DNA of 63,819 nt, counting the filler, from Reclinomonas americana ATCC 50394 (Eukaryota): NCBI GenBank assembly GCA_048213135.1. It is 5 parts of 2 records of this genome, joined end to end, with 100 filler letters (N's around TTAATTAATTAA, not from the genome) between each part and the next. Parts side by side here need not be neighbours in the genome. Positions count along the whole stretch, not along the records: positions 13,839 to 36,541 come from PS015048.1; 4 more parts are not named here. One strand, given 5' to 3'. The notes below the pieces were generated by a model, which saw nothing but the letters and a program-made list of their open reading frames with translations, ran no database searches and was not told the DNA's origin. Below, piece by piece: positions 5,258 through 53,219 of this stretch (position 1 is the stretch's first letter; each line of letters opens with the position of its first letter). The position numbers were made by a program, and so were the translations under genes.

Positions 5258-6795
5258 TCATTGTTGGTGATTCGCGACCGAACACGCTGCATGAGTCTCC
5301 TCATGAAGGTCACGTTGTGTTGCGTGACCAGCACCTGCGCACAGACAGTGAGTTGATGCAGAGTGAGAGAAGTGAGTATATGTCGCATTCACCTGCGCTG
5401 TGCCCTCCTTGGCCTTGAACAGATGATGCAGATACGCGCNNNNNNNNNNNNNNNNNNNNNNNNNNNNNNNNNNNNNNNNNNNNNNNNNNNNNNNNNNNNN
5501 NNNNNNNNNNNNNNNNNNNNNNNNNNNNNNNNNNNNNNNNNNNNNNNNNNNNNNNNNNNNNNNNNNNNNNNNNNNNNNNNNNNNNNNNNNNNNNNNNNNN
5601 NNNNNNNNNGTGCGGCGGTGGAGGAGACCGACTTGATCTTCTGCAACACGTATCACTTGCTGTGCAATCCGGGGGCGGAGGTGGTGCAGTCGTTGGGTGG
5701 CCTGCATGCGTTCATGCGACGGGAGCGGCCCATCATCACCGACAGTGGTGGCTTTCAGGTGTTTTCGCTGTCGGCCGCCACGCAGCACGAGCATCATCAG
5801 CAGGAGCTGAAGAGTCGAGCGGGCGCGCGGCATGAGTATCAGCAGCAGCAGCAGCCGTGCACGCTGAAGATTACGGAGGAGGGCGTGCTGTTTCGATCGT
5901 ACTACGATGGGCGACGCATCATGCTCAGCCCCGAGACCAGTGTGCAGGCGCAAAAGGCGCTGGGGGCGGACATTATCATCCCGCTCGATGACTTGCCGGC
6001 GTATCACATCTCGCGAGAGGAGTTGGAGCGATCGCTGGAGCGTACGCATCGGTGGGAGGAGCGTAGTTTGCGGGAACACTTGCGGGATCGACGGCAGCAG
6101 GCCATGTACGCAGTGATGCATGGCGGAGTGGACCTGGAGCTGCGCAAGCGCAGCATACAGCACCTCTCGCAGCTTCCCTTTGACGGCATGGCCATTGGAG
6201 GCAGTCTCGGTCGCGACCGCGCCGAGATGCGCCACATGCTGCAACACGTGATGCCGCTGACGCCGCGTCACCTACCACACCATCTGCTGGGCATTGGCGA
6301 TCCGGAGAGCGTGCTGGCGCTGACACCGCTCGGCATCGACACCTTCGACTCGTGCTACCCGACTCGCTCGGCACGACACAGCTGCGCGTTTGTCGCCACC
6401 GCCGACTTGCAAGTGAGCTCGCTGGTGCTGCGTCGCGGCAAGTTCCGCACCGATCCGGCACCCATGGAAGCCGACTGCCCGTGCGAGGCCTGCTCACAAG
6501 GCTACTCACNNNNNNNNNNNNNNNNNNNNNNNNNNNNNNNNNNNNNNNNNNNNNNNNNTCGTCAGCGTCTTGATCGCCGCGTTGGTGGCTGCACACACGA
6601 GTGAGAACGTCAGCGTGAAAGGACAGCTTGCAACAGTGCGTGAGGAGGCAGACCGACAGGCACAAAGTTAGGCGTCTCAATGATCCCATGTGGAGTGTGC
6701 ACGCGGCCCACACGCGCACGACTGCGACTGCTCTCATGCAACACCTCGAATCGAAAGAAGAGTCGGCGCTGTACTCTCCACACATGTGAGAACAT
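5258..6795 (-). CDS. tgt: Queuine tRNA-ribosyltransferase (TGT), chlamydial type; the middle portion 5610-6509 is on an inverted contig and reads on +
   Basis: The N-terminus on - reads [39 protein letters not shown]. The middle on + reads [60 protein letters not shown] and CPCEAC. The C-terminus on - reads [12 protein letters not shown]...[17 protein letters not shown]. Flipping the middle contig gives in-frame joins at both ends. Confidence 0.93.
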
Positions 6796-6842: not shown

Positions 6843-9001
6843 ATGATGGGCGGAGCATCGAGCAGTGATCGACGCACAGGCCGAGGCGAGGTCGAGGAGC
6901 GACCGCGACCTCGGAATGTTGGCGTGTTGGCACTGGAGGTGTACATTCCGCACACGTATGTGTCACAGAGAGCACTCGGTGAGTGCATGAGTGCGCGTGC
7001 TCTTAGTGTGTTGGCATGTTCTCACTTGTTGCTGGTGGTGCTGGCAGAGAAACACGATGGAGTCTCCGAAGGTCGATACACAGTGGGTCTTGGTGTCACT
7101 AATATGGCGTTCTGTGGCGACGATGAGGATGTCATCTCCATGTCGCTCACTGGTGAGTGAACGAGAAAGGCAGAAGAGTGTGTGTGTGTTGAGCAGAGAC
7201 AAAGCGAGATGCATGTTATTTTTTCGAGTCTTCTCTTTTCCTATTCCGGTCTCTGTGGGTGTGCGTGCGTGCAAGCGCGTGTGTATATATCGCGCACGAT
7301 TGCAGTTGCTGCGTTAATAGTCTGGTGATTGTCTTTTGTTTTTCCCTCGATGAACAGTGGTGTCGACCCTGTTCGAAAAGTATGGCGTGTCGGCCGGCGA
7401 TGTGGGTGTGCTGGAGGTCGGCACCGAGTCGCTGCTCGACAAGTCCAAGTCGGTCAAGACCGAGTTGATGCGCGTGTTTGAGGCCGCGGGCAACTTTGAC
7501 GTGGGTGGCGCCGACAACCTCAATGCGTGCTACGGTGGCACGGCGGCGCTGTTTCATGCGGTGCAGTGGGTGGAGAGCAGTGTGTGGGACGGGCGGTATG
7601 CGCTGGTGGTGTGTGCGGATGTGGCGACGTATCCGCCAGGCAATGCGAGGCCGACAGGCGGCTGCGGAGCGTGTGCCATGCTCGTCGGACCCGATGCGCC
7701 GCTGGTGTTGGAGCCAGGCACGTCTCGCTCTGATGTCTCTGTCGCTTCTCCTGCTTCTCACTTCCTCGTGCACTCACAGTGCGATCGTGTTATGCACGCA
7801 ACGTGTACGACTTTTACAAGCCGGAGCCGATGAGTGAGTATCCGATCCTCGACGGCCAGCTGACGCTCATCATGTACATGCAAGCGCTGGATTACTGCTA
7901 CGAGCGTGTGTGTGGGCGGCTGCGAGAGATTGTTGCGTGCGGGGGATTGTAGGCCATGTGTGTGGGTTGTTCACACGTTCTTTCGTGCAGGAAAAGAAGC
8001 CCATTGGCACGGCCGACATTGACGTGTTCCTGTTCCACTGCCCGTTTCTGAAACTGATTCGGAAAGCCACTGGACGATTGGTGCGCCACCGCCTGTGTAT
8101 CGCGTGGGAGAGAAGACAGAGTCGGAAACTGAGTGTCATGGTGGCGTGTGTGTGCGCAGCTGTATCGGGACTGGCGTGCGGGCATGTTGAAGCCGCCGCC
8201 GGAACATCCCGTCATCCCCTTGCTGCTCGGAGCTGCCGTCGAGGAGACGTATGGCAATCGAGAATTCGACACGCTGATGCTGGAGCAGAGGTGTGTGTGT
8301 GCGCGCCTAACACGTATGTGTGTGCATGCCTCTCCTCATTGTCGTCTTGCAGCGAATCACTGTACGCGGAAAAAGTGGCGCCGGCCACTCTGCTCAGCCA
8401 GGAGGTCGGCAACTCATACACCGCCTCGTTGTACATGAGTCTCGGTGCACTCGTGTACAAGTACGGGGAGCAGTTGGTATGTCTGCGCGCACACACACAC
8501 ACCGTGTAGTAGAAGCTGTTCACCCATGCGCTCTCGCGCGCAACGCAGGCGACCCGTCGCATCGCACTGTTCTCGTACGGCTCCGGCTTGTGTGCCGCCA
8601 TGTTCACAATCCGTGCTCGCTCCACGACCTCGTCCGTGTTCTCGCTGGCCAACATTCAGGAGCAGGCAAGTCACGAGAACGCGACATTTTGGCGGTCTTC
8701 TTTCCTCACTTCCGCCCTCTCTCCTCAGTTGTGCCTGGAGGAACGACTGCGATGTCGAGAGGAGATCGATCCGCGAAGGTACGAGGACGCCATGGCTCTA
8801 CGCTCGGCAGCATACGGCAAGTGCTCGTACACGCCACGGTGGTCAACCGCGGTGAATCCATGCACGGGCGTGTGGTACCTGACCGACATTGACGAACGAC
8901 ATCGGAGATCGTACCGCAGATGTCGCGGAACAGGTGCCGCCGATCTCCCCGCTCCCGCCCACCTCACAGCGTCCTCAGCAGCCGCAGGCAGTGCTCCCTG
9001 A
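6843..9001 (+). CDS. HMGCS: Hydroxymethylglutaryl-CoA synthase, multi-exon
   Basis: [50 protein letters not shown], catalytic [37 protein letters not shown] and [10 protein letters not shown]. Confidence 0.96.
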
Positions 9002-12313: not shown

Positions 12314-15279
12314 GATCGCAGTGTTTTCAAGGCCTGGTTGCCGACCGAGGGCGATGTGAGGGACGAGCTGGCCGTGCTCGTCTGCTCGGCGCTGCTGAAC
12401 GAGCCGCGCTACTACGACAACGGCGACCTGAGTGCGCAGGCCAGCGAGATCCGCCGCGTGGCCCGTGCGTGCGCCGCCACTGAGGAGGTCGACGCCGATT
12501 TTTTGCTGTGCCTGGCGCGCTACGTCAGAGTCGACCTGGGCCTACGGGCCTCCTCGTGCTTCCTGCTGGCGCTGGCGGCTGCAGATGAGGAGTGTGCACC
12601 GCGCTGCTCACGATTTGTGTCGCACTACGTGCCTCTGGTGTGCCAGCACCCAGGCGACCTGCTGGAGCTGGCCAATAGCGTGACGGCGCTGTCCGGGCGC
12701 GACAAGTGGCTGCCGTCGTGCATTCGACGGGGCGTGTGCCTCGCCCTGCCGCGATACGACGAGTACCAGCTGGCCAAGCACAACCGCGACAAGGTCCGGC
12801 GAGCGAAGGAGCGCCAGCGCAAGGCGGCCAAGAAGCAGGCGCAGCAGCAGGAGCTGGACGCAGCTGCTGCCGCGGCGGCGGCTATGGCGCCGAAGGGCAA
12901 CAAGGCCAAGGCCAAGGGGAAGAAGGACCAGCGACAGAAGGTCGCAATGAAGGCTCGCGGCAGCATCGCGGCCATGGCGGCTCGTGCACAGGCCGCCAGT
13001 GCCGCCGGTGCAGACGGCAGCGGCAGCGGCAGTGGCAGTGGCAGTGCGCGCCAGCCGTGGACGCTGAAGCAGCTGGTGCGCACTTGCCACGCCCACGAGC
13101 CGTGGAACCTCGTGTCGAAGATCCTGGGCAAGCGCGATGAGACTACGGGCCAGCGCCTGGCACTCGCCACGCCGCAGACGTGGGAGACGCAGGTGGCGGC
13201 CCACGGCAACACGAGCGCAGTGTGGGAGGAGTTGCTGCGGGCGAACAAGTTGCCGCTGCTCGCCACCCTCCGGAACCTGCGCAGCCTGCTCACGGTGACG
13301 CCAATGGTGGACGCGAGCCTGTACCGTGCCACTGTGCTGGCTCGTCTCACCAGTGAGCGGGCGGTGGGCATCTCGCGGTTGGCGCCGCACCAGTTCCTGG
13401 CGGCCGTGCACGTCGTCGGACAGCTCGCGGACTCGGCCGAGTTGTCTGCGAGTGCCGCGGCGTTGGCGCGGGAGACGACGGAGGCGCTGGACACGGCGTG
13501 CGCGTGTGCTGCCAACCGCAACTTGCCTCAGCTGCGCGGTCGGACGGTCGTGTTTTGCGACACCAGCGGCTCCATGGGCTCGGTGTGCAACACGGGCAGG
13601 GCGACTGGCCTCGGCCAGCAGCAGCGGCAGAGAGGCCAACTGGGTGGACGTGGCAACCGTGCTGCCGGCCCCACGCACGTCACCTGCCGCGACGTGGCGG
13701 TGTTCCTCAGCCTGCTGATCAAGTTTGCCGGCGGCGACNNNNNNNNNNNNNNNNNNNNNNNNNNNNNNNNNNNNNNNNNNNNTTAATTAATTAANNNNNN
13801 NNNNNNNNNNNNNNNNNNNNNNNNNNNNNNNNNNNNNNGATTGTGAGCTGCGCGTCTTCAGCTCGGCTCGGCAGCGCGGCGAGAAGAGCCACCGGCGAGT
13901 CGACAACTTGGACAGCAACAGCATCCTCCGCAACATTGCCCGCGTGAACGCCGAGGCCTCACGCCTGGGTGGCGGCACCGACTTCCCGTTCGACTACATC
14001 ACGGGCATGTTGCAGGAGGATGCCGACGCGGTGGAGCCGGTGCAGACCATGGTCATCCTCTCCGACATGCAGTTCACCAACCTGTCGCAGTCGGTGAGCA
14101 GGTCCGGCGACCTGGCCTCCATGTTGCGCGAGTACCGCGAGCGTCGCAACCCGAACATGCTCTTTGTGTCGGTGGACCTGCTGGGCTACGCGCAGCGGCC
14201 GGAGGAGCTGCGCTCGCGCGAGCTCGGCCAGTCGCCGAACAACCTGCAGCTGTCTGGCTTCTCGCCGTCGGTGCTCTCGTTCATCGCCAACCGCCAGCTG
14301 AACCAGGTCGAGCGCATCTACGAGAGACGAGTGACGCCGGCGGAGTGCGAGGCCATGGTGGCGGTGTTGAANNNNNNNNNNNNNNNNNNNNNNNNNNNNN
14401 NNNNNNNNNNNNNNNNNNNNNNNNNNNNNNNNNNNNNNNNNNNNNNNNNNNNNNNNNNNNNNNNNNNNNNNNNNNNNNNNNNNNNNNNNNNNNNNNNNNN
14501 NNNNNNNNNNNNNNNNNNNNNNNNNNNNNNNNNNNNNNNNNNNNNNNNNNNNNNNNNNNNNNNNNNNNNNNNNNNNNNNNNNNNNNNNNNNNNNNNNNNN
14601 NNNNNNNNNNNNNNNNNNNNNNNNNNNNNNNNNNNNNNNNNNNNNNNNNNNNNNNNNNNNNNNNNNNNNNNNNNNNNNNNNNNNNNNNNNNNNNNNNNNN
14701 NNNNNNNNNNNNNNNNNNNNNNNNNNNNNNNNNNNNNNNNNNNNNNNNNNNNNNNNNNNNNNNNNNNNNNNNNNNNNNNNNNNNNNNNNNNNNNNNNNNN
14801 NNNNNNNNNNNNNNNNNNNNNNNNNNNNNNNNNNNNNNNNNNNNNNNNNNNNNNNNNNNNNNNNNNNNNNNNNNNNNNNNNNNNNNNNNNNNNNNNNNNN
14901 NNNNNNNNNNNNNNNNNNNNNNNNNNNNNNNNNNNNNNNNNNNNNNNNNNNNNNNNNNNNNNNNNNNNNNNNNNNNNNNNNNNNNNNNNNNNNNNNNNNN
15001 NNNNNNNNNNNNNNNNNNNNNNNNNNNNNNNNNNNNNNNNNNNNNNNNNNNNNNNNNNNNNNNNNNNNNNNNNNNNNNNNNNNNNNNNNNNNNNNNNNNN
15101 NNNNNNNNNNNNNNNNNNNNNNNNNNNNNNNNNNNNNNNNNNNNNNNNNNNNGAATGCCGGCACCGCAGCTGGTGCTGTCGTTGCTCGCGTTGGAGACGA
15201 GCAGGCCATGGAGGTGGAGGAGCTCGAGGGAGCAATGAGTGTGGACGAGGAGGGCGAGGCTGATGAGGCGGTCGTGTAG
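12314..15279 (+). CDS. TROVE + vWA protein of the TEP1/p80 type (5' end in gap)
   Basis: LVCSALLNEPRYY, FLLCLARYVRVDLGLR, LPRYDEYQLAKHN, WTLKQLVRTCH, LATPQTWETQVAAHGN..VWEELL..KLPLLATLRNLRSLL are TEP1/p80 TROVE motifs. The vWA domain has MIDAS DTSGSM, GGGTDFP and ILSDMQ. Frames join across the linker (13738/13839) and across the 14372-15152 gap. Confidence 0.88.
13783..13794. other. Artificial scaffold linker TTAATTAATTAA flanked by N-runs (also at 36586-36597, 56110-56121, 62571-62582)
   Basis: An identical palindromic 12-mer with stop codons in all six frames is embedded in N-runs four times. Confidence 0.95.
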
Positions 15280-17945: not shown

Positions 17946-20900
17946 ATGAGCGCGCTGGTTGCGCTGTTTGGGCGACTGGCCTCTGCGCTGCCGTCATTAC
18001 GTGGGCGGCCACGACTGGCATCGGCAGTGTCGCGCTTGCTTGGCTCGCCCACATCGACGCCCGACGAAGGTACCGTGCATGCCAATCGGGTGTGCGATCT
18101 GGCGCTCTTTCTTCCGGTCAGCGCACGCACTGTGCTGCGAGCAGGTAGGTGTGGAGGACGGCAGATAGAGAGACGGGCACTGACGCGCGCCTCCAGGCTC
18201 GGGGGTGCTCGATGCACAGACGCATCCACCAATGTCGACGGTGACGCTGACGATGAAAGTGACGGCGTATGTGCAGCATCCGCGACGCACGCTGGTGCAT
18301 GGAGTGACGACGCAAGGGCAGCAGGTGCACGTGGTGTACTTTGCGCGAATGCCCATGGGCTACATCCACAAGCAGTTCCCGCGGGATCAGCTGCGCGTGG
18401 TCACCGGGCGCGTCAAGTTCTTCCAGCCGCACTCGTGTTGCGTCTTGCCGCGTCTCGCCGGTCTCTCTATCTCTCTAACTAACTGTCTCTCTGTGTGTGT
18501 GATGCGACAGTGGTGCTGCCGATTGTGAGCATCTCACACCCGACGTATGTGGGTTCACCAGAGACGACTGCTGCTGCTGCCGCCACCGAGCCACCATTAC
18601 CCGAGTCAGCAGGCGAAGGCACACTGGCAGCAACCAAGACGAAGACGAGGAAGACGAGGAAGCAACAAAAGGCGCCAACAGAGGACCTTACTGTAGACTC
18701 CTCCTCCACAACAACATCGGAGGAGCAGCCGGTTCCAGTGTATCCGCTCACCGCCGGGCTGAAGTCGTCGGTGTTGCAGACGTTGATCCGCGAGGCCATG
18801 GATCAGTCGGTGGTACCGCATCTGCAGCGCGTGGAGTGGTTGTCGCCGACCTTGGTGTGTGAGCGACAGTGGATGTCGTTCACCGACGCCTTGCGGTGCG
18901 TGCACTTTATGGATGCGCACGGCAGCTCGAATGACGCCGCAGCCAAGGCGCAGCGCGAGGCGGCACGCTCCCGACTGGCATTCGACGAGCTCTTTGCACA
19001 GCAGTTGGCGTTCTCCGTGGCCCGACACGAGCGCATGCTGGAGGCCGACGCGCGTCAGACCCTTCAACAGAATCGTGTGACACTCAGTTTCGCTGAAGTG
19101 CAGGAACGAGTGCCGCTGATCAAGCGTGCAGCTGCCGCCCTCCCGTTTGCACTGTCGCCCGGGCAGGAGAGCGCCGTGTGCGAAATCGTGTCGGACGTGC
19201 TGCACGGAACAACGACGCGCACACCGATGTGTCGCCTCCTGCAAGGCGATGTCGGCTCCGGTAAGACCGTGGTGACGTTTCTGGCGGCCCTGGCTGCCGT
19301 GCACACCGGTGGGCAAGTGGCACTGATGGCTCCGACCGAGTTNNNNNNNNNNNNNNNNNNNNGCTGGCCTCCCAACACTTTTCCACGCTCTCCAGATTCG
19401 CCGGCCCCATTGGTGAGGCATGCTCTGGCACGCCCGCTCACCGCTCACTGCATACCCACTCTCTCTTTTAATCGCCATGAGCGCAGATGTGTCGGTGCTG
19501 CTGCTGACGGGTCGTCTCGGTGTGCGAGCACGCCGCGACGCGCTGGCTCGCATCGCCGACGGACGAGCGCAGATTATTATCGGCACCCACGCTCTGTTTC
19601 AGCACTCTGTAGTATTCCACACTCTCGCGCTGGCAGTCATCGACGAGCAGCAGCGCTTTGGTGTGCGACAGCGCATGTCGCTGACCGATAAGGGCGCAGT
19701 GCACCGCGTACACGTGCTGGCCACGACCGCCACACCCATTCCACGCACCCTCATGCTGGCGGCGTACGGTGACATGGATGTGACGCGCATTCGTGATCGC
19801 ACACGACCGCCAGTGGAGACAGTGGCGCTCACCGCCGGCCCCAAGGCCATGGAGTACGCACTGGCGCAGGTGCTGGCGGCGCTGAAGCGGGGTGAAAAGT
19901 CGTACTGGATCTGCCCGCTGATCGAGGACAGCGAGATCTCGCCGCAGCTGACGGCCGTCACCGAGCGGCGAGCGTGGCTGGAGAAGCGGCTGGCGGAGAG
20001 CTCGCCCACCACGACGGTGGCGCTGGTGCATGGGAGACTATCGTCGGAGGAGAAACAGCGAGAAATGGACTCGTTTGCGGACGGTGATGCTGCGGTGNNN
20101 NNNNNNNNNNNNNNNNNNNNNNNNNNNNNNNNNNNNNNNNNNNNNNNNNNNNNNNNNNNNNNNNNNNNNNNNNNNNNNNNNNNNNNNNNNNNNNNNNNNN
20201 NNNNNNNNNNNNNNNNNNNNNNNNNNNNNNNNNNNNNNNNNNNNNNNNNNNNNNNNNNNNNNNNNNNNNNNNNNNNNNNNNNNNNNNNNNNNNNNNNNNN
20301 NNNNNNNNNNNNNNNNNNNNNNNNNNNNNNNNNNNNNNNNNNNNNNNNNNNNNNNNNNNNNNNNNNNNNNNNNNNNNNNNNNNNNNNNNNNNNNNNNNNN
20401 NNNNNNNNNNNNNNNNNNNNNNNNNNNNNNNNNNNNNNNNNNNNNNNNNNNNNNNNNNNNNNNNNNNNNNNNNNNNNNNNNNNNNNNNNNNNNNNNNNNN
20501 CTGGTCGGCACCACGGTGGTGGAGGTGGGCATGGATGTGCGTCTCGCCACGCTGATGGTCGTGGAGCACGCGGAACGGTACGGCCTCTCGCAGTTGCACC
20601 AGCTGCGTGGTCGCGTCGGCCGCTCCGGCGATCGACCGAGTCGATGCATTCTCATGGCGTCCGAGTCGGTGTCGACGAGCTCCGAGGCCACCGAGCGATT
20701 GCGCATTATGGAGTCGACTCATGATGGGTGTGTGTGCGCGTGAATGAGAAAGGTCGCGTGTGTGTGTGGCTCATGTGATGGCAGTTTTGTGATTGCTGAA
20801 CGAGACTTGGCATTCCGAGGGCATGGCGAGGTTCTCGGAACCAAGCAGGTGTGTGAGGGGTTCGGAGGGGAGGCGGGGGGAATGGGTGTGTTTCTCATTC

Positions 20901-21581: not shown

Positions 21582-24526
21582 GACCGTGCGAGAGATTGCC
21601 ATGAACGCAGCACTTGGTGTCCGTGATTATGTTGTTGACGACGAAGACTGTGACAGTTCTGATGAGGAGGAACCTGAGGATCAGGTTGACGATGACACCG
21701 CACCCATCATCAAGTTGCGTTTGTCGTCTAACCTGTTGTTTGTACTGTGGATCCTCCACTATTATGTGACTTAAATATCGTGCTCGTCGCAGGAACCCCG
21801 AGTTTTTAAAATGTCGTTGTCGCAACCAGTCTCGCGCACCACTGCCTCTTGAGTCAACTTATGGAGTTCTGCCAACGCGAAACAATCAGCTGGGAAGAGT
21901 TCAAGAACTGTGTGAATAGTTGGTTCCTGGATATCAGTCGTCGACCTGCGGGGTAAGTCAATTATTGTCTCGTCATTGCGCAATCTCGGTAATGAGACTT
22001 GATATCGATGTTTGCTGTGGACATTGCTGTGTTCAGTTCCGTTGTTTGGGAAGTCGAGCGCGGCAATCGAAAACGAAAATGCGTTCGTTTTGAGACCAAG
22101 AAGAAGAACAAGGTGGTTCGACGATGGTTACGTTTCTTGTTGGAGAAGCGAGAGCGAGGAATGCAATTGGTCGACGCAATCGTGGACGGCGGTATTCAAA
22201 TGTTCAAGCACTTTGACATCAGCGCGACTTCGTCGATACTCCGCTTCATGAAATGGAATGGCGTCAGACTTGTCGAGAACGCCGAAGTTGTACGTATACG
22301 TGTATCTTCTGCGAGTCCACTGTTTAACCGCTGAATGCTGACTCTATTGGCGTGTGCGGTTTGCAGCGCGCAACTGTCGAGGAGTTAGCGAAAACGCGGA
22401 ATGACATCATGCACAAGATTGATGCGTTCCCGAGCAGTCGATGGAGAGCACTACGTCGAGATCTTGTTGGACCGACAGAACAAGAGCGTGCATTTGGCGT
22501 ACGCGCACATGCGCCAATGGTGGCAGCGAATCCGGTGCCCGGAGCAGATGCACCATGGCCAATCGTGGCAGTGGGTCCGGCCGTGGAGGCAGAGGCAGAT
22601 GTGCACATTGTTGTACAACCGCCGGTCGCGAATCCGGAACCCGGAGCAGGTGCACTTCTGGTGGCACCGGCAGCGGATCCGGAGCCAGTAGCAGATGATG
22701 CACCAATGGTGGCAGCGGGTCCGTTGCCCGGGGCAGATCGTGATGGCCGCATGCAGCTTTGGGCGAGGTTTCTGCGGGGCTGCGCAAACGTCGACACAAG
22801 AGCCGTTGATGAAGCGATCCAATACCTGCGCGACATCCGCGACGCCGTCGGGCCTCATGCCGACCTGGAAGGCAATGACGCGCAAGCTGCAGGTAATCAT
22901 GTTGCTGTGTTTCGCGTGCCCAACTCCAGCTCCGAATGCGTGTTGATTAACCCGAGCTCGCCGTGATGTAGGTGCAGCTGTTGCCCGTGTCGGTGCCAGG
23001 CAAACGCATCCCTCGTTGGATGCTTTGTGGAGTCGAATTGCCGGGGATGCTGCGCATAATGCAACTCTCGATGACATTTATCAGTATTTTGTTGCTACTT
23101 AAACCTCTCTTGTGCCCAGATGCACTCGTGTTCATCTGTTCGCATACGCAGGTGGGAGAGAACAAACGACCTGCAAAAGCCAGCTTCAGCCTTGCTTTTC
23201 TGGTCAGCGTGAGCGTTGTTCTACTACTGCTGGCTTTCATTCCCACAGAGAATCTCGGATCCTGGTTGACCACGACGGGGAACGGCCAAGTCTTCGTCAC
23301 AACGGGGTCCGACAACGGCGCACAAGTCACGGTGCTAGCGACCATGGTCCTGAAATTCAACGCTCTCAGAGCGCAATGGAGAAGTTTGTCGCTTACGCAT
23401 AATCTCTCCGAGTGAGTTCATTGTAATCCTTCGCGATCGTGCTAACTTTGTCCACACGGCAGTTACCATGGTGGAGAACCACGATACTCATCTCTTCAGG
23501 AACGAAACAATGCTCGACATGGATACTGAGTTGTGGCGGCTTTGTGGTGCATTGATGTTAGCTGCTCGCATCGTCTACTTTGCTTCGCGTCTGACAAACA
23601 CGTCGACTTTGTGTGAGGTTAGATGATCCCCTGATTGGCAACGCGCTTGGTTCATCGTGCACTGCATTGTGGGGACTTGGGATTGGTCCGTATAGTTGCT
23701 TTCCTCGGTTATGCTCGAGCTCAGGACCTGCTGATCAGATGTATGTCATGCAGCTATCTCTGTCATTGCAGCTGCTGCCGCGTTCTTTTGCCTTGCCGCC
23801 GAGTTTTTCTTGCTTCAGATGATTCCGTGGCGACACATTCGCACATGTTTCAAGTCGACTCCGTCACAATTGGTCAGTTACCATCTGTTTGTACTCTTCA
23901 CTTGCACGTCAGCCGTTCTTATCTGACAGTGCAATGCATCAATGCAGGGCCGCAAGTCCGGCTGCTGCTGCAACTTCTGGTCCGCGTCGAAAATGGCGAC
24001 ACATGCGACGGTATACATGTGCATATGCATATGCTACGCGCGCTGCTCTGTTTTCATTGCGGCTGCTTTGATGTACACCCGCAGACATCGCTGATATTGT
24101 CACTGGCCCTGGCGTGCTTCAACGGTGCGTTTGGTAGCTGTCTAGTGGAAGATATTCACTCGCAGATGTGCCTGACTTGATGAATTCCTAGTTCTCATCT
24201 GGCTTGCAATCGCCTTCTTCGGTCGTCCCCCGTTGAACAATAACATCTCCAAGGTCATCAACTCGCTGCTTCCGGCGTATGCTCATCCGGTTGTGGATGT
24301 GGGTCAAGTGGAAATCCAGTGGCTGCTGTGGCTGGAGGTGGCCGCCGTTGGACCAATCTTCATCGCCTTAGTTGCTCACATAAAGCTCCGACGTCGCTAC
24401 TCAATCAAGAGGGCCTATGCTGCAGCGTGGAGCCATATTTCGGAGATCTTTCACGGTCACGCCGTGGCGAACAGGGACAACAATAACAACAACGGCAACG
24501 GCAATGGCAACGACGACCGCGTCTGA
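21582..24526 (+). CDS. Uncharacterised multi-exon protein convergent with the Fanzor gene
   Basis: A series of GT-AG-bounded open segments, e.g. SVVWEVERGNRKRKCVRFE..., ATVEELAKTRNDIMHKID...APMVAA repeats, and final exon ...NNNNNGNGNGNDDRV*. No family motif was recognised and some junctions are uncertain. Confidence 0.5.
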
Positions 24527-25223
24527 ATGTGCCGCGCACGTGCTTCGAATTCGAGTGGGATCCGGAGGAGTGGGTGGAGGAACGTACTGCGGCCGGTGGC
24601 CATGATTGGGCAGGATTCATGATTATTCACTGGAACGCATTGAGTGTGTGTTTGTATTCATGTGTACATATAGTGAACACAGCTGTACAGAGTTTGAGTT
24701 CCTGTATCTGTGGCCAAGCATTTTTCACTGCATGCTAGCACAGGCTGATATGTGGAGGCAGCGATGCCAACCAGAGGTGCGCAGATGGGCTGCGCAGTTG
24801 TGCATATGACCTACAATAGTGCGTACGCCGCAGCTGCTGCCGCAGCCTTCTTGTGGGCAGCTCGTTGATATTCACAAATTTCACTAGGGGGGCACGCGGT
24901 GAGAACACGGTTTGAAGGGCAATGGCAGCACCCCAACGAAACAATAAGTTTGGGTACAGTACCCCCGGAAGGGAAATTTCAGAAAGCAGAAAGAGAGGAG
25001 AGGGGAAAAGAAGGCAGGGGAAGGAGACAAGAGAGGAGAGATGCGTGTGAATGAAGACAAAAAAGACTTACCACACAGTTTGCTTCTGCGCAGCATGGGA
25101 GAAAAAACGGGAGTTAGAGACCGCCTCTTCCACCCATCGTTACCCCCATCAACACACACACACACACGCACACCAGGCAAAGAGAAAGGAGAAGAAGAAG
25201 AAGAACGCAACATGAGTTTGGGC

Positions 25224-27589
25224 TTACTCCTTGGAAAATGAGTTCAAGGGTCTCTTGGACCGCTTGTTTGAGTTGGATCGGCGCTTACTCGCCGATTGCG
25301 ACCGCCCAGGTACAGATGGGGCACTCGAACCCTCACTGCGAACGACGGAAGGGAGACAGCAATGAGGACAGCCTCAACACAAAAGAGCACAATGCATGGG
25401 AGGGATCACATCCAGTGGCACGCACGGTTGCTGTTGGTGCTCGACAAGTGTTCCCGGTCGCGATGCAGCTGCAGATTGCAATTGAGCTCGACCAGTTCGA
25501 GCTGCAATCCTGGCCGATTGCCTCGTCCCTGCGGGCGGTGACGGCTCCACGACCTGCGCGAACACGTGTTGGAATGTACAAGAGAGGAATGAGAGCATTG
25601 AGAAGAGTACCTCCTCCTCCTCCTCCCCCTTCCACTCTCCGTCCTCCTCCTCCTCCTCCTCCACCACCTCCTCCTTCTTGTTCTTCCTCTTCTTCTTGGT
25701 CTTCTCCGACGTCGACTTCTTGGTCCGCTTCTTCTTCGGCTCTGTCTCCTCCTCGTCCTCCTGGTCCACCGTTGATCGGGGACGCTTGCAATTGGCGGGC
25801 AACTGCAGCGGCACACTCTGCAGCACCAAGCCGCTCAACAGAATGTTCCATGCACCGCGAGCGTCACGGAACACCGTTTTGCCTTGCAGCGGGCACCCCT
25901 CAGTGTTGCACACGATCGTCTTGTCGCTCCCCACCTTCTTCCCTGTTCCGCAACCCGGGCAGTGCATAGTTGATCCCGCCTCCGAGAGTGATAGCACCAC
26001 CAGCTCAACGAACGACGCATCCTGTTGAGATAGCACTCTCGTCTTGGCAGCCTGTGCATGCACAGACACGCGGAGAGAGAGAAAGAGAGTGAGTGAGACA
26101 GAAATCAAGTCAACTCAGTCCGTCAGCCGCTGATACACGTACACACCAGTGATTCCGCTAGCCTCTTCACCACACCAAAGCCAGAGTATTGCATCTTGAG
26201 CACAGTGTCGCGTCCGATGCATCTGTCCTGCCACTCTTTGCGATAGTCGACCCACTGTCGTTTCTGCATCATGTGCGCCATCTCCTTTGAAAATGGTGGC
26301 AGAATGAGAACCGCATTGATAATGGCCGCTCTGCGTGGTTGATATGCACAAGTGAATGAGACACCACCGCTTGCAATCACCACACCATGCTCATGCACTC
26401 ACTTGCGCACAAAGGAGACTGCGTTGTTGTAGGCAGCGGCCCGCAAACGGCGCGTGATGTTCGCCAGTCGCCGCTCAATCAACTTGCGTGCCCGCGCGTC
26501 CACAATGCGACCATACGACGCAAGCTTCCGCTGCAGCACGGACTTTTGCTGGAGTAGCGGGAAAATGACACGTGCCGCCCAATCCTTTCCATGCTCGTCG
26601 ATCGCCCAGTTCACGCCAGCACCTGTGCGCGTGACATGGCGTGAGAAATGGTGGAGAACGGGGAGGGGGAGGGAGGGGAGAGAGGAAAGGAGATGAGGGG
26701 AGAACAGCATGAAGAAGAAGAGGCCTAGGGGAGGTGATAAGAGAGAGAGAGAGAGAAGAGAGGAGAGAGGAGAAGAGGGAAGAAATGAGAAGAAACGAAA
26801 CGGAGGAAAGGCAAGGGAAGAGAAGAGGAAAGGAGAGAAGAGGAGAGATGAGCGGCGGAGTTAACAACAAGAAGAGAAAGATGAAGAAGAGATGGCGGAA
26901 AGAGAATAGAAAGAGAACGAAAGCGTATTAATAGATGAGAGAGAGAGTACGGAGGACAGGAGTGAACGATGAGAGGAAATGAGGAGAAGAAAAAGGGCGT
27001 CATTCATGCAGTCAATCCTGACACACGTACACACGCAAGAGAGCACAAAACTTCTCTGGTGCACACTCCCACATCCACTCTGCCTCCCCGCCCCATGAGA
27101 ACAACATACCAACGGTTGCCACTGTGGCGAATCTCCGCACACCATAGTCAACGCCCGACGCACAGAGCGTGAGTGCCTTCCAGATCGCTGAACCCACGTC
27201 GCACGCTTGATGGCTACCGCCGCACCGGTGAGGCGGCGATCCACACACCAAACACCGCGATACGTTGCCTTTAGCGTCGACAAAAAACGCAAAGCACATT
27301 TCATCGCTGTCAGATGCATCGGCCTCCACCGCCGGCTCCGCATCGCCGCCACCTCCACCTCCACTTCCACTTCCACTTCCGCTGCCCTGGTCATCTCCAC
27401 GTGCACCTCCACCTCCACCTCTACCTCCTGCACCACCACCGCTGTGAATGTCGGGTGGTTTCGCGCGCCTCCGTTTGCGACATCGTCCCTTGTGGCGTGC
27501 ACGCCGCCGCACTTTCGGCTGTGCTGCGTTCATCGACGAGCGGAGATTCGCCAGAACAGAAAGAAGTGTTCGCCGGGCCTTTCGCGATT
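25224..27589 (-). CDS. TnpB/Fanzor-family RuvC nuclease module (exons 27589-27110, 26622-26403, 26330-26147, 26051-25611, 25553-25426, 25335-25224)
   Basis: RuvC-I is GVDYGVRRFAT (Asp codon 27147-27149), followed by a bridge-helix region LQQKSVLQRKL...RLANITRRLR. The RuvC-II strand is VLILPPF with a relocated Glu in LSEAGSTMHCPGCG (Glu 25980-25982). The zinc finger is CPGC...CNTEGC, and RuvC-III is FRDARGAWNILL (Asp 25863-25865). Splice phases are consistent across all these introns. The tail has basic NLS-like runs (PKKKRTKK, KKKRKNKK). Confidence 0.9.
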
Positions 27590-28171
27590 CTGCACGCATG
27601 CATCAGCACATCTGATCAGTGAAACAAGTTGTCCCACACGACGTCAAGCTCACCATGCATTCGCTGCTGCCGTCGCGCAGCATAGTAATGCTGCTTCCAC
27701 GTAAGCTGGTCGCCGCGACGGGGGGCATCTGGATATGACGAGGCATGGGCGCAGCCACTTGCAAAGGCGACACCGACGTCACCGCCACCGGCACCGCGTC
27801 GATCGGCCTCTGTGCGCGGAACTTGGACGAACCGCGTCGCGCAGTCGAGGATGCCACCGACCAAGTGTGCCATGGCGCCGATTGCATCGCCGGCGACTGT
27901 GCACACCCATGCAACACGACATATGCATGAGTTTCGCAACAGAGAGATAAAGAGAGAGAGAGAGAGAGAGATTGTTGGTCACCTTCGCCGAGAATCCCAT
28001 CGGCATCCATTGCCACGCCATCGTGCATCTTGTCAGTGCGACCCCACATTAACAGCGTAGAACGTTCACTCTCGAGGGCATCTGCAATCGCGGCATTGGA
28101 TGAGCACAGAGACAGAGGGGAGGGAGAGCGAGAGAGAGGACATGGAGAAGACAAAATGACAACAAGAGTGT

Positions 28172-28221
<50 letters not shown>

Positions 28222-31200
28222 GAGCGAGAGCAAGAGAGAGAGAGAGAGCGCAACTGTTGATCCTGGTTGTTGTGGAGTTATACTCCTCAAGACGAATAAC
28301 GGCAGTTTTGATAGCCGCAAACGACCGCAGGTCCCAGCGATGGGGATTGCGTTCCAGCAATGTCCGCATCCGCTCGGGCTCCAACGCAGCCTTCCGCAGC
28401 GCCAGATCCAACAACCGAAAACTGTCGCGCTCACCGTCGTCGCTGTCGAAACGGAACGGCAACTCGCCGAGTTGTGACTGAAGCACGTTGACCGGTAGGG
28501 TGGACAACACGCCCACGATGCGATGCATCGCGCCGATGATGGTTGTTGACGATGCGAGGAACCCTGCTGGAATCGCTTGCCGCAGCTGCGCGACAGCAAA
28601 CTGAACCGGCCACGACTCCGCTGCCCTCGGCGCTTGTTGCGACGAACTGGCGGCCGAGGTTGCGGCACCCCGTTCATCGCCATCGTCCGCCTCCATCTCC
28701 TCGGTTGCGCGATTAGCTGCCCAGGACCGGTACCGCAATTCCTCGACAAGAATGCGGACGGCCTCGTCGACGACGTTGCGCGCGTATTGGAGAACCGTGG
28801 CATGGTATGCCGACACACGGGCGCGACACGAAGTTGCAGCAGGCGACTGGCCCTTCTGTGCGTCTCGCATCGCACACGCCATGTCCAGACGGTAGGTGTT
28901 CGACTCTCGCACTACAATGTCGTAATGAGAGGAGAACGACGATCTGCTGAGTTGCTCCAGAACATCGCGATGATCGTCACTCGCGCCCTCCTGGATCACT
29001 TCTGTCGCCAACGCACGCGCACACGCCAGGACCTTGTAGGTGACAAGCAAAGGGTCTCGCAGCAGCGCTGTCGCGCTGTGTTCACAGAAGCCGGATCGTC
29101 CAAGTGCATCCAGCGTCGTCAAGTATTGCTGCACCGTCCAGTCCGCAGCCTCCGGATGTGAGCGCGGCAACAGGTGCTCGCGAACAATCGGGTTCCACAG
29201 CGGCGAGTCCATCAATTGCAACTCAAGAGTGGGCGGCGGCGAGCCCGGCGGCCGCTCTCGCAATTCACGCTCCAAGGCCGACGCAACAGGAGTGGCCTGT
29301 GCCAGTGGTATCGCTTGTTTCTCGACAGNNNNNNNNNNNNNNNNNNNNGGCGAGTGGCAATGCCTCATCCACCGACGACGACGCCGACGACGACGACGAT
29401 TCGGCATCAGAAGACAATCGCGACGAGCTGGTTCCAAAGTCTGACAAGGCAGAGACAATGGCGGCCGATGCGACGGCTTTGGTGGAGGAACAAGATCAAG
29501 ATGACCTGCAGGCGGATCTTGAGGCCGACATCAGTGACGAGGAGACCGACCGAGATGGTGCGTGAACACGCATGTTAGCTGGCAGTCGACAGTCGTTCTA
29601 GATCTGAAAACCTCCTCACCTTGCGCAATTGCGCAGATGCGAGTGTTGTCGGAGATGGCCGGCTGTACGTCGCTGAATGTGATCAGCTGGCGAGAATCCA
29701 CAAGCTGCGACACCGATTGTGTCCCTCTCTCGTCGATGTGGTGCGATCTGTTGTTCAACGGTTGCCCGTGCGTGACGACGCTCCCAAGCTTAATCAAGAG
29801 GAGAAGGGAAAACAAGCATCCGGATCCACTACAGTGTCGGCCGTGGATGCGATTGCCAACATCGCCGGCATCGTGGCGAACGCGCTGGAGACTCAATTGA
29901 AGGAGGCTGCCACACGCTTGACGGTTGAAGCTGCCGCCGCCGTCGACGACGTGCCTGTGGAACGGATCGTGGAACAATTCGACTGGCTTCTGATCCAAAA
30001 TCTCGTTGCGGCAGCACCTTTGGTGACAGAAGCGGGTGCGCATGCCATGAGTGCTGGCAGTCACGGTACCGGTCGCGACATGGATGTCGATTGTGAATCG
30101 GATGCACCAAGATCACCTTCACCCTCGGCCTCGGCCTCTGAATCGCACATGGAATGCGACGGCGATGACGACAGCGGCAGTGGCGCGGCCGGCGACGACG
30201 ACGCAATGGAGGAGGAGGAGGCCCATGAGGAGGAGGAGGAGGAGGAGGAGAAGGAGGAGGAGGTGGTGGTGGTGGAGGAGGGTGCCGGTGCCGCTGACGA
30301 CGGTGATAGCGCAGCCATGGCCAGTAGCGCAGCTGGCCATGGCGCTGGTGTGGTCGAAGCGCCAGCAGCTGCGGTGGTGGCACCACAAAAAGGCGACAAT
30401 GTCACTCTTGCAGCAAAGCGAGGTACGAGCAACATGTTAACTGCAGAGATGAGATGAATGATGCACTCACTGTCTCGTGTCTCGCAGTGGAACGCGCATG
30501 TGCTTCTGCTGCGCAGGTGCTGCTTTCTCTCGAGTGTTCCAGTCGAGCATGCGCGAGACACGCTGTCGCCTCCTCACTCATGCGAGCGACNNNNNNNNNN
30601 NNNNNNNNNNNNNNNNNNNNNNNNNNNNNNNNNNNNNNNNNNNNNNNNNNNNNNNNNNNNNNNNNNNNNNNNNNNNNNNNNNNNNACTTTCAACGAGCCG
30701 ACAAAAGATTCTATGATATCATGAGCGATCGAGTGCACGGCATGAGTGAGATGCATTCACCAAGAACGACATGGAACTGGCTTGTTGCGCAACTCAGTCT
30801 GTCAAATGACTCATCGAGGGCCCTGCAAGCAGAGGTCAAGCACGACAGCAACCGGTCGGACGAGAATGCTGCTGCAGCTGCGTTCGCACTCTGCTGCAAT
30901 TGCAAGTCACGTTCTTGTGTGTGGATGGCTGACCNNNNNNNNNNNNNNNNNNNNNNNNNNNNNNNNNNNNNNNNNNNNNNNNNNNNNNNNNNNNNNNNNN
31001 NNNNNNNNNNNNNNNNNNNNNNNNNNNNNNNNNNNNNNATGATAGAGAGTGTGAGCGGCGATGTCGTCGTGCAAAAGAAACATGCAAACTCATCAACAAA
31101 CCATTGAAGATGTCCTGTGCCACGAATGCTCGCTGGACGCACTCAAAAAACGCGTCTCGCAACGACACAAGCACACTCGTNNNNNNNNNNNNNNNNNNNN

Positions 31201-49965: not shown

Positions 49966-51539
49966 ATGGGCGCGTCTTCCACCCGCGCATTCACTCCTCA
50001 CGAGATCAACCAACTTCGCGCACAGTACCTGCGCGTGGTGCGGCGACGTCGAGGCGGCGTGGTGGGCCCTCCGTCGCACTCCGACTCGCCCTCCTTGCCA
50101 CCTGCATCGCCGCCACCACCACCAACACCACCACCACCAGCACGCGCAGCCGCCTACGTTGTGTCCTCTCCAGCGCAGGTGGAGGAGGCGGAGGACGANN
50201 NNNNNNNNNNNNNNNNNNNNNNNNNNNNNNNNNNNNNNNNNNNNNNNNNNNNNNNNNNNNNNNNNNNNNNNNNNNNNNNNNNNNNNNNNNNNNNNNNNNN
50301 NNNNNNNNNNNNNNNNNNNNNNNNNNNNNNNNNNNNNNNNNNNNNNNNNNNNNNNNNNNNNNNNNNNNNNNNNNNNGCGAGGACCGCCTCCACTATTCTC
50401 CGGTGGCGCTGCATCGTCGTCATCGGTGCTGTCGCCGACGGGTGTGTCGATGCATGGCGCAGAGAGTCCTGGTGCAGCAGCAGCAAGTGTGATGATGAGC
50501 GATAGCATGGAGGATGGTGGTGGCGATGATGATGGTGCAGTAGCTGGAGCATCGCCTCCACCACCTCCGCTGCATCACGAGCAGCCATCGTCGCCGCTGC
50601 CGGGTGCTGTGATGGGAACGGCCACGAATGAGACAGCGTCGGATAGCGGCGATGAGGGCGGCGATGGCGACGAGTTGGTGCGAGGTGCGGTTTACATGTC
50701 TAACACAAATGTGTGCTAGTGCAGTTTTTCCTCAATTCGTCGTCGTCGTTGGGTGTGCAGTGGCGCAAGGCTTGACGGCGGAGGAATTCAGTGAAGTGTT
50801 TACTGGCCTGCCGGAGATTGTGCGACCGCCGGCTGAGATTGTGGCGCGCTACTTTGATGCGTTTGACACGGATCACAATGGCTTGGTTGATTTCCACGAG
50901 TTCCTCGCCGGTCTCTACGTGTGCTGTCGCGGCACCATCGACGACAAGGTCAACTTTCTCTTCAAGATTCAGGACCTCGACGGCGACGGCATCATCACGA
51001 AGCGAGAGTATTCGACAGTGGCGCGCGCCTCCATGCAGGCGTTTCATCGGGTCATGCGTGCCGAGTTGGAGGCCAGCAAGGACCCCATTCTGCTTGAGTC
51101 GTTCGACGAGGGCATTCGTGTCGGCGTCGACGAGGGTGTGGAGGAGTTCTTTCGTCTGGCCGATGTGCGTGACGGGAGAGGGGGCGAGATGATGAACCCG
51201 TGCGTCATGTTATCTCACTGGCTGTGCGCACGCTCTGCAGGTCGACTGCAACGGCGTGGTGACGCTCGACGAGTTCCGAAGGCACATCAAGACGAACTCA
51301 CGAGCGCGTGAGCTGCTGAAGCATCTGGGCGTCAACTTTGCGACTGTATTTCCCGACCAACAGGTGACGCCCACCGCACTGTTTTTCTGCAAAAGAGTCG
51401 TGCTTCTGACACAAGCGAGGCACAGCGGCAAGTCCAGCGCATGCAGCGCGACTTTGAGGCGACCCGGCAAAAGTTTCGGGAGACCATCGAGGGTGGTCTC
51501 GTCGAGCCGGAGGAGAACTCCTGTTGTGTGTGCTTGTAG
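49966..51539 (+). CDS. Myristoylated EF-hand calcium sensor (NCS/calcineurin-B-like)
   Basis: MGASST N-terminus, FTPHEINQL, EF-hands FDAFDTDHNGLVDFHEF, QDLDGDGIITKRE and D.DCNGVVTLDEF, and the GTIDDKVNFLFK motif. Confidence 0.88.
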
Positions 51540-52998: not shown

Positions 52999-53128
52999 TG
53001 AGGGATGGTGAAATCGACGGGACAGAGGCTGAGCAAGGCCTTCGCTCTCTGCTTTGTGATTCACTGATGTGCCAAGCGACACCGAGACTGATGGTGGTCA
53101 CCGGCGCCCATCACGAACCGTTGTCATC

Positions 53129-53181
53129 ATGTCGCTGGGACGCAAGCAGCCCATTGACTTTCAGACCTACGAGGGTATGCC

Positions 53182-53219
<38 letters not shown>

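Follow-up and report, generated by a model that had tools for sequence, protein, structure and literature searches.

A putative relocated-glutamate TnpB homologue encoded by a proposed spliced gene of Reclinomonas americana

Does the intron-bearing gene on the minus strand of this stretch of Reclinomonas americana ATCC 50394 sequence encode a protein of the Fanzor kind, and if so, of what descent and in what state? The stretch, termed the window below, comprises 63,819 nucleotides (nt) of eukaryotic draft sequence from assembly GCA_048213135.1, including 39 N runs (8024 N in total), and the gene lies in the part that comes from PS015048.1 (positions 13,839 to 36,541 of the window). Fanzors are eukaryotic RNA-guided DNA endonucleases, thousands of which have already been catalogued. 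The reading favoured here, to which we give a probability of roughly 70%, is that the product of the gene is a eukaryotic TnpB-superfamily protein that has diverged far and belongs to the relocated-glutamate (Fanzor/pro-Fanzor) kind. As judged from the sequence, homology to TnpB proteins with a relocated Glu is highly probable; given such homology, a still working RNA-guided nuclease can be proposed by analogy, tentatively and at somewhat less than even odds.

Fanzors have Pro or Gly where RuvC-II canonically holds Glu and use instead a Glu some 45 residues downstream, and the D324A and E467A mutants of ApmFNuc are inactive (PMC10530073). Fanzors occur widely in eukaryotes, have introns and a mean size of 620 residues, and carry a nuclear localization signal (NLS) in about 60% of cases (PMC10530073). 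The fingerprint described for them combines DPG in RuvC-I, "near exclusively", with a Glu placed six residues ahead of the zinc finger; for TnpB, the RuvC-I rule is D-Phi-G, in which Phi includes Tyr (PMC10711439). The fingerprint has been formulated as the regular expression DPG x(120,160) E x6 CxxC x(12,18) CxxC x(4,8) D, with a D{P}G twin, and in a set of about 140,000 TnpB proteins the relocated-Glu members number 5053 without DPG and 1227 with it (PMC10711439, Table S7).

Catalytic motifs and the proposed spliced gene

Translation of the minus strand places the RuvC and zinc-ribbon motifs in four stop-to-stop open reading frames (ORFs) that occupy three frames, and removal of three introns brings them into one. 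All motifs quoted in a preliminary description of this DNA were recovered there, in four exons separated by three GT..CAG introns. Residues are numbered on the spliced model.

27155-27141, minus strand: GVDYG, RuvC-I with Asp D261
26311-26291, minus strand: VLILPPF, Pro P358 at the old RuvC-II Glu site
25988-25959, minus strand: LSEAGSTMHC, relocated Glu E432
25961-25950, minus strand: CPGC, first Cys pair of the zinc ribbon, C439/C442
25910-25893, minus strand: CNTEGC, second Cys pair of the zinc ribbon, C456/C461
25868-25842, minus strand: RDARGAWNI, RuvC-III with Asp D471

The C-terminal half of the model thereby reads, in order, the RuvC-I strand with D261, a helical spacer, the strand with P358, E432, a four-Cys ribbon and the RuvC-III helix with R470-D471..N477-I478. 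The relocated-Glu rule is followed exactly, with the six residues AGSTMH between E432 and C439 and no Glu at the canonical site (P358). The earlier statement that the triad and four Cys are intact across the introns stands for every residue, with a correction in spacing: the second pair is C-x4-C, not C-x2-C.

The exons and introns from which this model is built are as follows, in the order of transcription.

28052-29326, minus strand: upstream open frame of 425 residues, interrupted by an N run at 29329-29348
27983-28081, minus strand: tentative exon X1, with ALESERSTLLMWGRTDKMHDG; contains the first in-frame ATG
27654-27896, minus strand: tentative exon X2, from VAGDAIG to LTWKQHYYAARRQQRMH, placed by frame and splice sites
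27653-27590, minus strand: intron between X2 and E1, 64 nt, GT..CAG
27110-27589, minus strand: exon E1, placed by splice sites and frame; holds RuvC-I GVDYG (D261)
27518-27459, minus strand: basic cluster in E1, PKVRRRARHKGRCRKRRRAK
27440-27342, minus strand: Gly-rich low-complexity run in E1
27254-27201, minus strand: Cys/His cluster in E1, CLVCGSPPHRCGGSHQAC, a short way upstream of RuvC-I
27109-26623, minus strand: intron 1, 487 nt, GTATGT..CACAG, 77% C+T on the coding strand
26403-26622, minus strand: exon E2, with RuvC beta-strands and, between RuvC-I and RuvC-II, the long helical segment (AGVNWAIDEHG to RRLRAAAYNNAVSFVRK)
26402-26331, minus strand: intron 2, 72 nt, GTGAGT..CGCAG
26147-26330, minus strand: exon E3, the RuvC-II strand VLILPPF, with P358 replacing the canonical Glu
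26146-26052, minus strand: intron 3, 95 nt, GTGTGT..CACAG
25374-26051, minus strand: exon E4, with E432, the zinc ribbon and RuvC-III D471; stop TGA at 25376-25374
25739-25674, minus strand: Lys-rich, NLS-like tail in E4, PKKKRTKKSTSEKTKKKRKNKK

The boundaries of all five proposed introns are GT and CAG. Joined, the exons comprise 633 codons, or 623 residues when begun at the first in-frame ATG (28049-28047), and we propose a spliced minus-strand gene that covers at least 28081-25374 and encodes about 620-630 residues, or more if the upstream frame is included. That 425-residue frame is possibly an N-terminal extension or a separate gene, and the status of the final 110 or so codons of E4 is uncertain. 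Intron 2 contains an in-frame TGA at its 5' end, so that its retention would truncate the protein. The profile alignment described below runs through the E1/E2 junction, with a one-residue insertion only, and through the E2/E3 junction, which supports these two splice junctions.

Eight host ORFs from the window served to train codon log-odds; in their own frame, seven of them score 0.19-0.55 (the eighth, the HMG-CoA synthase ORF, -0.02). In the proposed frame, E2 scores 0.33, E3 0.24, the core of E4 0.25 and X1 0.26, and every other frame of E2, E3 and the E4 core is negative. E1 (-0.14), X2 (about 0) and the E4 tail are not coding-like by this measure; all three hold low-complexity runs, and the negative value of E1 is attributable to its low-complexity part. 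The upstream frame scores 0.135, the best of its six frames.

Two small-share sequencing runs, apparently of DNA and from one sample, were also searched, parts of the gene left uncovered being uninformative; the run labelled X1 gave no match, and that labelled X2 (run labels, not exons) gave a 452-nt contig covering 27166-27604 at about 98.6% identity. This contig differs from the window by three synonymous and three non-synonymous changes and by deletions of 6, 3 and 3 nt, which are all in frame and fall in the Gly-rich run; this hints, weakly, at a second allele or copy in which the frame has been preserved. The contig runs on past E1 through 15 nt of the putative X2/E1 intron, the behaviour expected of genomic DNA or of a transcript before splicing. 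Beyond 27604 its end carries 25 letters that do not match the window and that resemble sequencing adapter more than genome sequence.

Low-complexity sequence is found both in the reading frame (Gly-rich at 27440-27342 and Lys/Glu-rich at 25739-25600, minus strand) and in the introns, where microsatellite-like runs of (CT)n/(GA)n abound (26640-27000, 27930-27975 and 28130-28250; C+T reaching 77% on the coding strand). Runs of this type are also seen elsewhere in the window.

Alignment with relocated-glutamate references

References were collected through the motif E.YTSK.C..CG. In IMG/VR this motif marks at least 122 loci, and the matches listed include 49 ORFs of at least 330 residues; a 480-position hidden Markov model (HMM) was built from these 49 viral relocated-glutamate TnpB/Fanzor ORFs, and 32 of them form the alignment called A1 below. 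The consensus of A1 is ALDPGxRTFxT ... KNYxxILLPxF ... IVxExYTSKTCxxCG ... CxxCxxxxDRDxNGARNIL. Among solved structures, the best match of A1 is 9b0l, that of the mimivirus "TnpB-like protein L79" (E 1e-91), with TnpB and Cas12f entries ranking next, indicating that the reference family is Fanzor2-like. L79 (9B0L) is ApmFz2, with the triad Asp324/Glu467/Asp501 (PMC11832414). The same motif marked 110 loci in a prokaryotic sample, with 43 ORFs of at least 330 residues, one of them unalignable, and the combined set contains 91 aligned references.

The spliced model aligns on the 49-ORF HMM as a single domain, residues 260-484 on HMM positions 281-469, with 22.8 bits, as compared with 1.8 bits for the best of 200 shuffles and the reversed sequence. 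VDYGVRRFAT is placed on lDPGvrtflT, VLILPPFS on villPkle, LSEAGSTMHCPGCG on vtEeYTSKtCgrCG and FRDARGAWNILL on dRDvnGArNIll. P358 falls on the conserved Pro of the reference ILLPxF and E432 on the invariant relocated Glu, six residues ahead of the first zinc-ribbon Cys, in agreement with what had been proposed for both from the motifs. In this alignment, at the level of sequence, the Asp/Glu/Asp order is collinear with that of the family. The best pairwise identity to the references is 28% over 189 columns.

E4 alone scores 18.4 bits on the same HMM (E 5.4e-5) and is the only one of 1181 ORFs in the window at E<1. As most of the 22.8 bits come from E4, the segment from RuvC-I to RuvC-II was scored separately. 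Residues 226-425 of the model, which exclude the Glu, the zinc ribbon and RuvC-III, score 5.8 bits against the 49-ORF profile and 4.6 against A1, in both cases aligned where they should be, and none of 500 shuffles scores as high; on the larger, 72-sequence DPG profile the segment scores 1.0 bit, which 2 of 300 shuffles reach.

Over the 91 references, 19 columns are at least 85% conserved, and the model keeps 14 of them. Eleven of these conserved columns are not forced by the search motif; ten are kept (D261, G263, L408, C456, C461, R470, D471, A475, N477 and I478), and at the eleventh the position of F404 is changed to L. The relaxed pattern E-x6-CxxC-x12-18-C-x2-4-C-x4-10-D occurs in one of the 1181 six-frame ORFs of the window, the present gene, and arises in 5 of 200 residue-shuffled ORF sets. 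Because the relaxed pattern and the profile were picked after the sequence had been seen, these tests are supportive rather than formal.

Searches with single exons point to the same family at the C-terminus. As the preliminary description had required of profile searches, E4 matches TnpB zinc-ribbon models, weakly and as the only exon to do so: Pfam PF07282 (Cas12f1-like TNB) at E 0.0046 and 17.5 bits (family cut-off 26.3), and NCBIfam NF040570 (guided_TnpB) at E 7.5e-4 and 18.9 bits, on profile positions 341-387 of 389 (cut-off 100, set for the whole protein). In the ESM Atlas, all 30 nearest clusters of E4 carry PF07282 (top 0.94, with 182 of 256 shared features). Against A1, hhalign gives E4 a probability of 91.7% and E 7.9e-7 on columns 489-541 of 544. 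The TNB zinc ribbon followed by the RuvC-III helix is thus matched by alignment, with the four Cys and R-D..A.N-I conserved. From E1, the piece GVDYGVRRFATV is placed on aLDPGvRtFxT of A1 (columns 352-363, E 0.0062), a weak top match.

If the protein is expressed and folded, D261, E432 and D471 would come together as a single RuvC site that binds metal and cuts DNA, with the adjoining zinc ribbon (C439, C442, C456 and C461) in a structural role. By analogy with Fanzors, cutting would be guided by RNA derived from the 3' end of the gene and would take place beside a short target-adjacent motif. The spliced sequence has two Lys/Arg clusters (27518-27459 and 25739-25674), which might serve nuclear import.

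The Cys/His cluster CLVCGSPPHRCGGSHQAC (27254-27201, minus strand) has the form C-x2-C-x6-C-x6-C with two His and is without a counterpart in the reference alignment; it could be an extra metal-binding knuckle or a product of chance.

Present state and descent of the gene

Several results weigh against a relocated-glutamate TnpB homologue of the Fanzor kind, and the first group concerns similarity. The matches in the curated libraries are all under the family cut-offs and confined to E4, no Pfam or NCBIfam family is matched by E1, E2, E3, X2 or the upstream frame, and neither E2 alone nor E3 alone is significant against A1 in hhalign. For the WED/REC half, no upstream ORF on the minus strand matches the reference profile (hhalign E 0.59, 0.79 and 0.21), although such halves diverge fast and may be present without being matched. 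An exhaustive phmmer search of E4 against 1.84 billion representatives gave six matches, none of which is TnpB-like. The 91 references were all chosen through one motif, and hence under-sample the family and contain no Fanzor1. On a tree, the model occupies a branch 5.07 changes per column long, without a supported position, and forcing it together with the non-DPG clade raises the log-likelihood by 4.88 (p-AU 0.595 in the approximately unbiased test).

The fingerprint itself is also incomplete. RuvC-I reads D261-Y262-G263, and DPG is present in 72 of the 91 references and DYG in none; both published regular expressions fail, with a gap of 168 from Asp to Glu (limit 160), the C-x4-C pair and 9 residues to the final Asp. 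These expressions are strict, catching 25 and 7 of the 49 viral references among the matches listed. In addition, a DVG at residue 244, 17 residues upstream, is a conceivable, less probable RuvC-I Asp; it aligned solely to the non-DPG profile, at -5.5 bits, and D261 was kept.

A third group concerns the surroundings of the gene, in which the expected place of a guide RNA (omegaRNA or fRNA) is the 3' flank.

24780-25373, minus strand: 3' flank, expected place of the omegaRNA/fRNA

Rfam gave no match in the whole window, and the folding z-scores of the flank are unexceptional (-0.19 for 25380-25080 and -1.34 for 25080-24780). A search for terminal repeats found only low-complexity or chance inverted repeats of at most 13 nt, and among 68 flanking ORFs of at least 85 residues (20.5-36.6 kb) none matched a transposase or any Pfam family at E<=0.001. 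None of the flanking ORFs is an IS607-type serine recombinase TnpA (PF00239), and a profile search of the 1181 ORFs found no second copy of the gene within the window.

Other searches of E4 and of the upstream exons gave little. The six phmmer matches of E4 are RCC1, Big, FG-GAP or tandem-repeat proteins, whose scores are summed from several weak stretches; against PDB sequences, E4 gave six matches at E<=10, none of them TnpB-like, the best being an Ig-like repeat adhesin and attributable to chance or repeat summation. A word-indexed search of E4 among longer proteins scored none of 224 candidates, and the single-sequence AlphaFold2 model of E4 (mean predicted local distance difference test, pLDDT, 59.3; predicted template modelling score, pTM, 0.42) is too poor for a fold search. 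X2 shows no similarity to A1. The upstream frame matched no Pfam or NCBIfam family, was uninformative in the ESM Atlas (recognition 1093) and has no homologue among proteins of near length, longer and shorter proteins not having been searched. Its hhalign match to A1 (E 0.21) is non-significant; the top local match is SPLWNPIVREHLLP (29206-29147, minus strand; residues 41-60 of the upstream frame taken as 28280-29326), which pairs with PFWN..L.LP near the N-terminus of the giant-virus Fanzor2-type alignment, in collinear order and at different spacing.

The alternative that survives best, unlikely as it is, accepts the same ancestry and holds that the gene is now an immobilised, drifting relic, not a working RNA-guided nuclease, with a core that is still readable and an N-terminal half, guide RNA and ends that have decayed. 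The lack of WED/REC similarity would fit such decay, but in Fanzors the N-terminal half is, as a rule, difficult to detect from sequence. The long Gly-rich and Lys/Glu-rich runs and the negative or neutral codon scores of E1, X2 and the E4 tail would fit it as well, whereas the core exons are host-like in codon usage and in frame, and the frames are open over at least six exons with consensus-like splice sites at all five introns. Consistent with a relic are also the lack of terminal repeats or a transposase within about 10 kb, of a structured 3' RNA and of a second copy in the window, together with loss of the conserved YTSK beside the Glu. However, ten of the 11 unforced conserved residues, the whole triad and the four Cys are kept despite about 5 changes per column, and drift would be expected to have cost some of them.

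A further possibility, which we consider improbable, is domestication: a solitary, intron-bearing, host-codon-adapted nuclease of Fanzor lineage that lacks transposon hallmarks and has kept the triad and ribbon would have been exapted, with or without a guide RNA, for a host function and would no longer be mobile. The gene is indeed located among ordinary host genes, including those for queuine tRNA-ribosyltransferase (TGT, E 3e-82), the HMG-CoA synthase C-terminus, a TROVE-domain protein (an uninterrupted ORF of 475 residues), a DEAD-box helicase and proteins with fn3, EF-hand and DUF4464 domains.

5612-6508, 7838-8506, 12314-13738 and 18483-20097, plus strand; 36790-39124, minus strand; 50613-51308 and 53060-53695, plus strand: host-gene stretches

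Eukaryotic neighbours, introns resembling those of the host, host-like codons and the NLS-like Lys/Arg clusters together suggest, at the level of sequence, adaptation to the nucleus, and retention of catalytic residues despite extreme divergence would be expected of a host gene too. Yet no orthologue was found in any search, and conservation across species is the hallmark of domestication. The apparent lack of transposon hallmarks is also less telling than it seems, as non-autonomous, Helitron, Crypton and IS607-type carriers need no terminal inverted repeats, and the context is limited to 64 kb with 39 N runs. Elsewhere in the surroundings, five tandem-like copies of a 41-nt unit (22509-22738; 42-57 nt spacing, 61-88% identical) sit in overlapping long ORFs without a family match.

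The question of descent is whether the gene stems from the DPG (Fanzor) lineage or, quite improbably, from a non-DPG prokaryotic TnpB with relocated Glu ("TnpB with derived RuvC2") that was captured independently by a eukaryote. The D-Tyr-Gly of RuvC-I fits the D-Phi-G rule of TnpB, and non-DPG proteins are the more numerous of the relocated-Glu TnpBs in Table S7 (PMC10711439); the constrained tree also leans towards capture, but its result may reflect long-branch attraction. The flanking motifs, on the other hand, are those of the DPG group. The 91 references fall into 66 with DPG and Pro at the old Glu site, 6 with DPG and Gly, 19 without DPG and with Gly, and none without DPG and with Pro; GVRxFxT is absent from all 19 non-DPG references, and the model has Pro-Pro-Phe and GVRRFAT. 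Because Pro at the old site occurs only alongside DPG, these features favour a Fanzor-lineage gene in which Pro was changed to Tyr. At six group-discriminating columns, the model agrees with the DPG majority at three and with the non-DPG majority at none. The full model scores 15.9 bits on the DPG profile and 8.1 on the non-DPG profile, and its C-terminus 21.0 and 14.1 bits, a gain of 7-8 bits between profiles of unequal depth (72 and 19 sequences); the non-DPG sample is small and was picked through the YTSK motif. Overall, the sequence features make it more likely that the gene descends from the DPG (Fanzor) lineage and that the Pro of RuvC-I was later changed to Tyr.

For the Fanzor-lineage reading, the earlier claims about signature and kinship need adjustment. 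To call the signature typical of Fanzors was an overstatement, with DYG in place of DPG and both regular expressions failing; the check by alignment and phylogeny that had been suggested yielded a collinear Fanzor2-type alignment and an unsupported tree placement, with reference sets that lack Fanzor1. A link with IS630, also put forward, is not mentioned in the available parts of PMC10711439, in which the link described is with IS607. An active nuclease under selection, as had also been suggested, finds no support in the searches, which returned no relative for a dN/dS comparison, no guide RNA and no recognisable RNA-binding half at the N-terminus. A search of a large protein collection with the A1 profile found no named eukaryotic Fanzor1 and nothing beyond 30 close relatives of metagenomic origin from the giant-virus family; two of these 30 carry a PF00239 resolvase domain. 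The prokaryotic relatives with DPG and Pro are mostly cyanobacterial (Moorena, Microcoleus, Nostoc, Trichodesmium and others), and those without DPG and with Gly are mostly archaeal or from other bacteria. The cyanobacterial kin and the PF00239 carriers agree with the IS607/pro-Fanzor picture (PMC10711439).

Chance resemblance, in which non-coding or unrelated sequence would happen to hold a few short motifs and a Cys-rich stretch like a zinc ribbon, and at which the sub-threshold library scores, the spurious repeat-protein matches of E4 and its low-confidence AlphaFold2 model might hint, is very improbable, as three libraries concur on the family and the profile position, hhalign gives E4 an E of 7.9e-7, the four-exon collinear alignment is reached by none of 201 controls and the segment without E4 by none of 500, and the relaxed pattern is confined to one of 1181 window ORFs.

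Significance and comparison with known systems

Introns, an NLS and a relocated Glu are the norm in Fanzors, and the core of the finding is expected biology, not a new system. Among known Fanzors, the gene is apparently a divergent, off-fingerprint and solitary variant. Its DYG, longer spacing and C-x4-C pair let it escape motif screens, and published Fanzor screens built on DPG and fixed spacing would miss it; it has no detectable relative or transposon context, and still keeps ten of the 11 unforced residues. This combination suggests that censuses based on motifs or regular expressions under-count divergent eukaryotic TnpB descendants. The gene is a candidate for asking whether such descendants persist as host genes and, if active, would be a very distant new scaffold for the Fanzor toolbox.

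The closest comparison is with Fanzor2 and pro-Fanzor proteins, the giant-virus and cyanobacterial IS607-type TnpB homologues that include mimivirus L79. Common to these and the present gene are the RuvC-I Asp, the Pro of (I/L)(I/L)LPxF, the Glu six residues before CxxC, the four-Cys ribbon, RD..GA.NIL and GVR(T/R)FxT after RuvC-I. The triad has the same order, with spacings of 171 and 39 in the present gene and 143 and 34 in ApmFz2. Fanzor2 differs in having DPG and YTSK where the present gene has DYG and AGSTMH, and the second knuckle of the present gene is C-x4-C. Also unlike Fanzor2, the present gene has spliceosomal introns and long low-complexity inserts, and is without a neighbouring serine recombinase or a recognisable N-terminal domain (NTD), WED or REC region.

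Fanzor1, exemplified by SpuFz1 (PDB 8GKH; PMC11832414), comprises eukaryotic, transposon-borne Fanzors, and its hallmarks are a REC2 of two kinked helices and insertions in REC1 and WED (PMC10711439). Likeness to Fanzor1 is by description only and comprises the eukaryotic host, introns, NLS-like clusters, a size of about 620 residues or more and the relocated Glu (PMC10530073). PDB searches with E4 or A1 did not return the Fanzor1 structure 8GKH. Fanzor1 is transposon-borne, whereas no associated transposon was found near the present locus.

The relocated-Glu TnpBs without DPG ("TnpB2"), such as TvTnpB of Thermoplasma volcanium (PMC10530073), share with the present gene the D-Phi-G of RuvC-I and the relocated Glu. 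They differ in having Gly at the old site in all 19 references and a length of 349-439 residues, where the present gene has Pro and the flanking motifs of the DPG group.

Canonical TnpB is exemplified by that of ISDra2 (PDB 8H1J and 8EX9). In canonical TnpB, some 50 residues separate the Glu from the zinc finger downstream of it (PMC10711439), and it is the site of this Glu that holds Pro in the present gene. Common to the present gene and canonical TnpB or Cas12f is the C-terminal TNB zinc ribbon with the RuvC-III helix, as matched by positions 341-387 of 389 in NF040570 and by PF07282.

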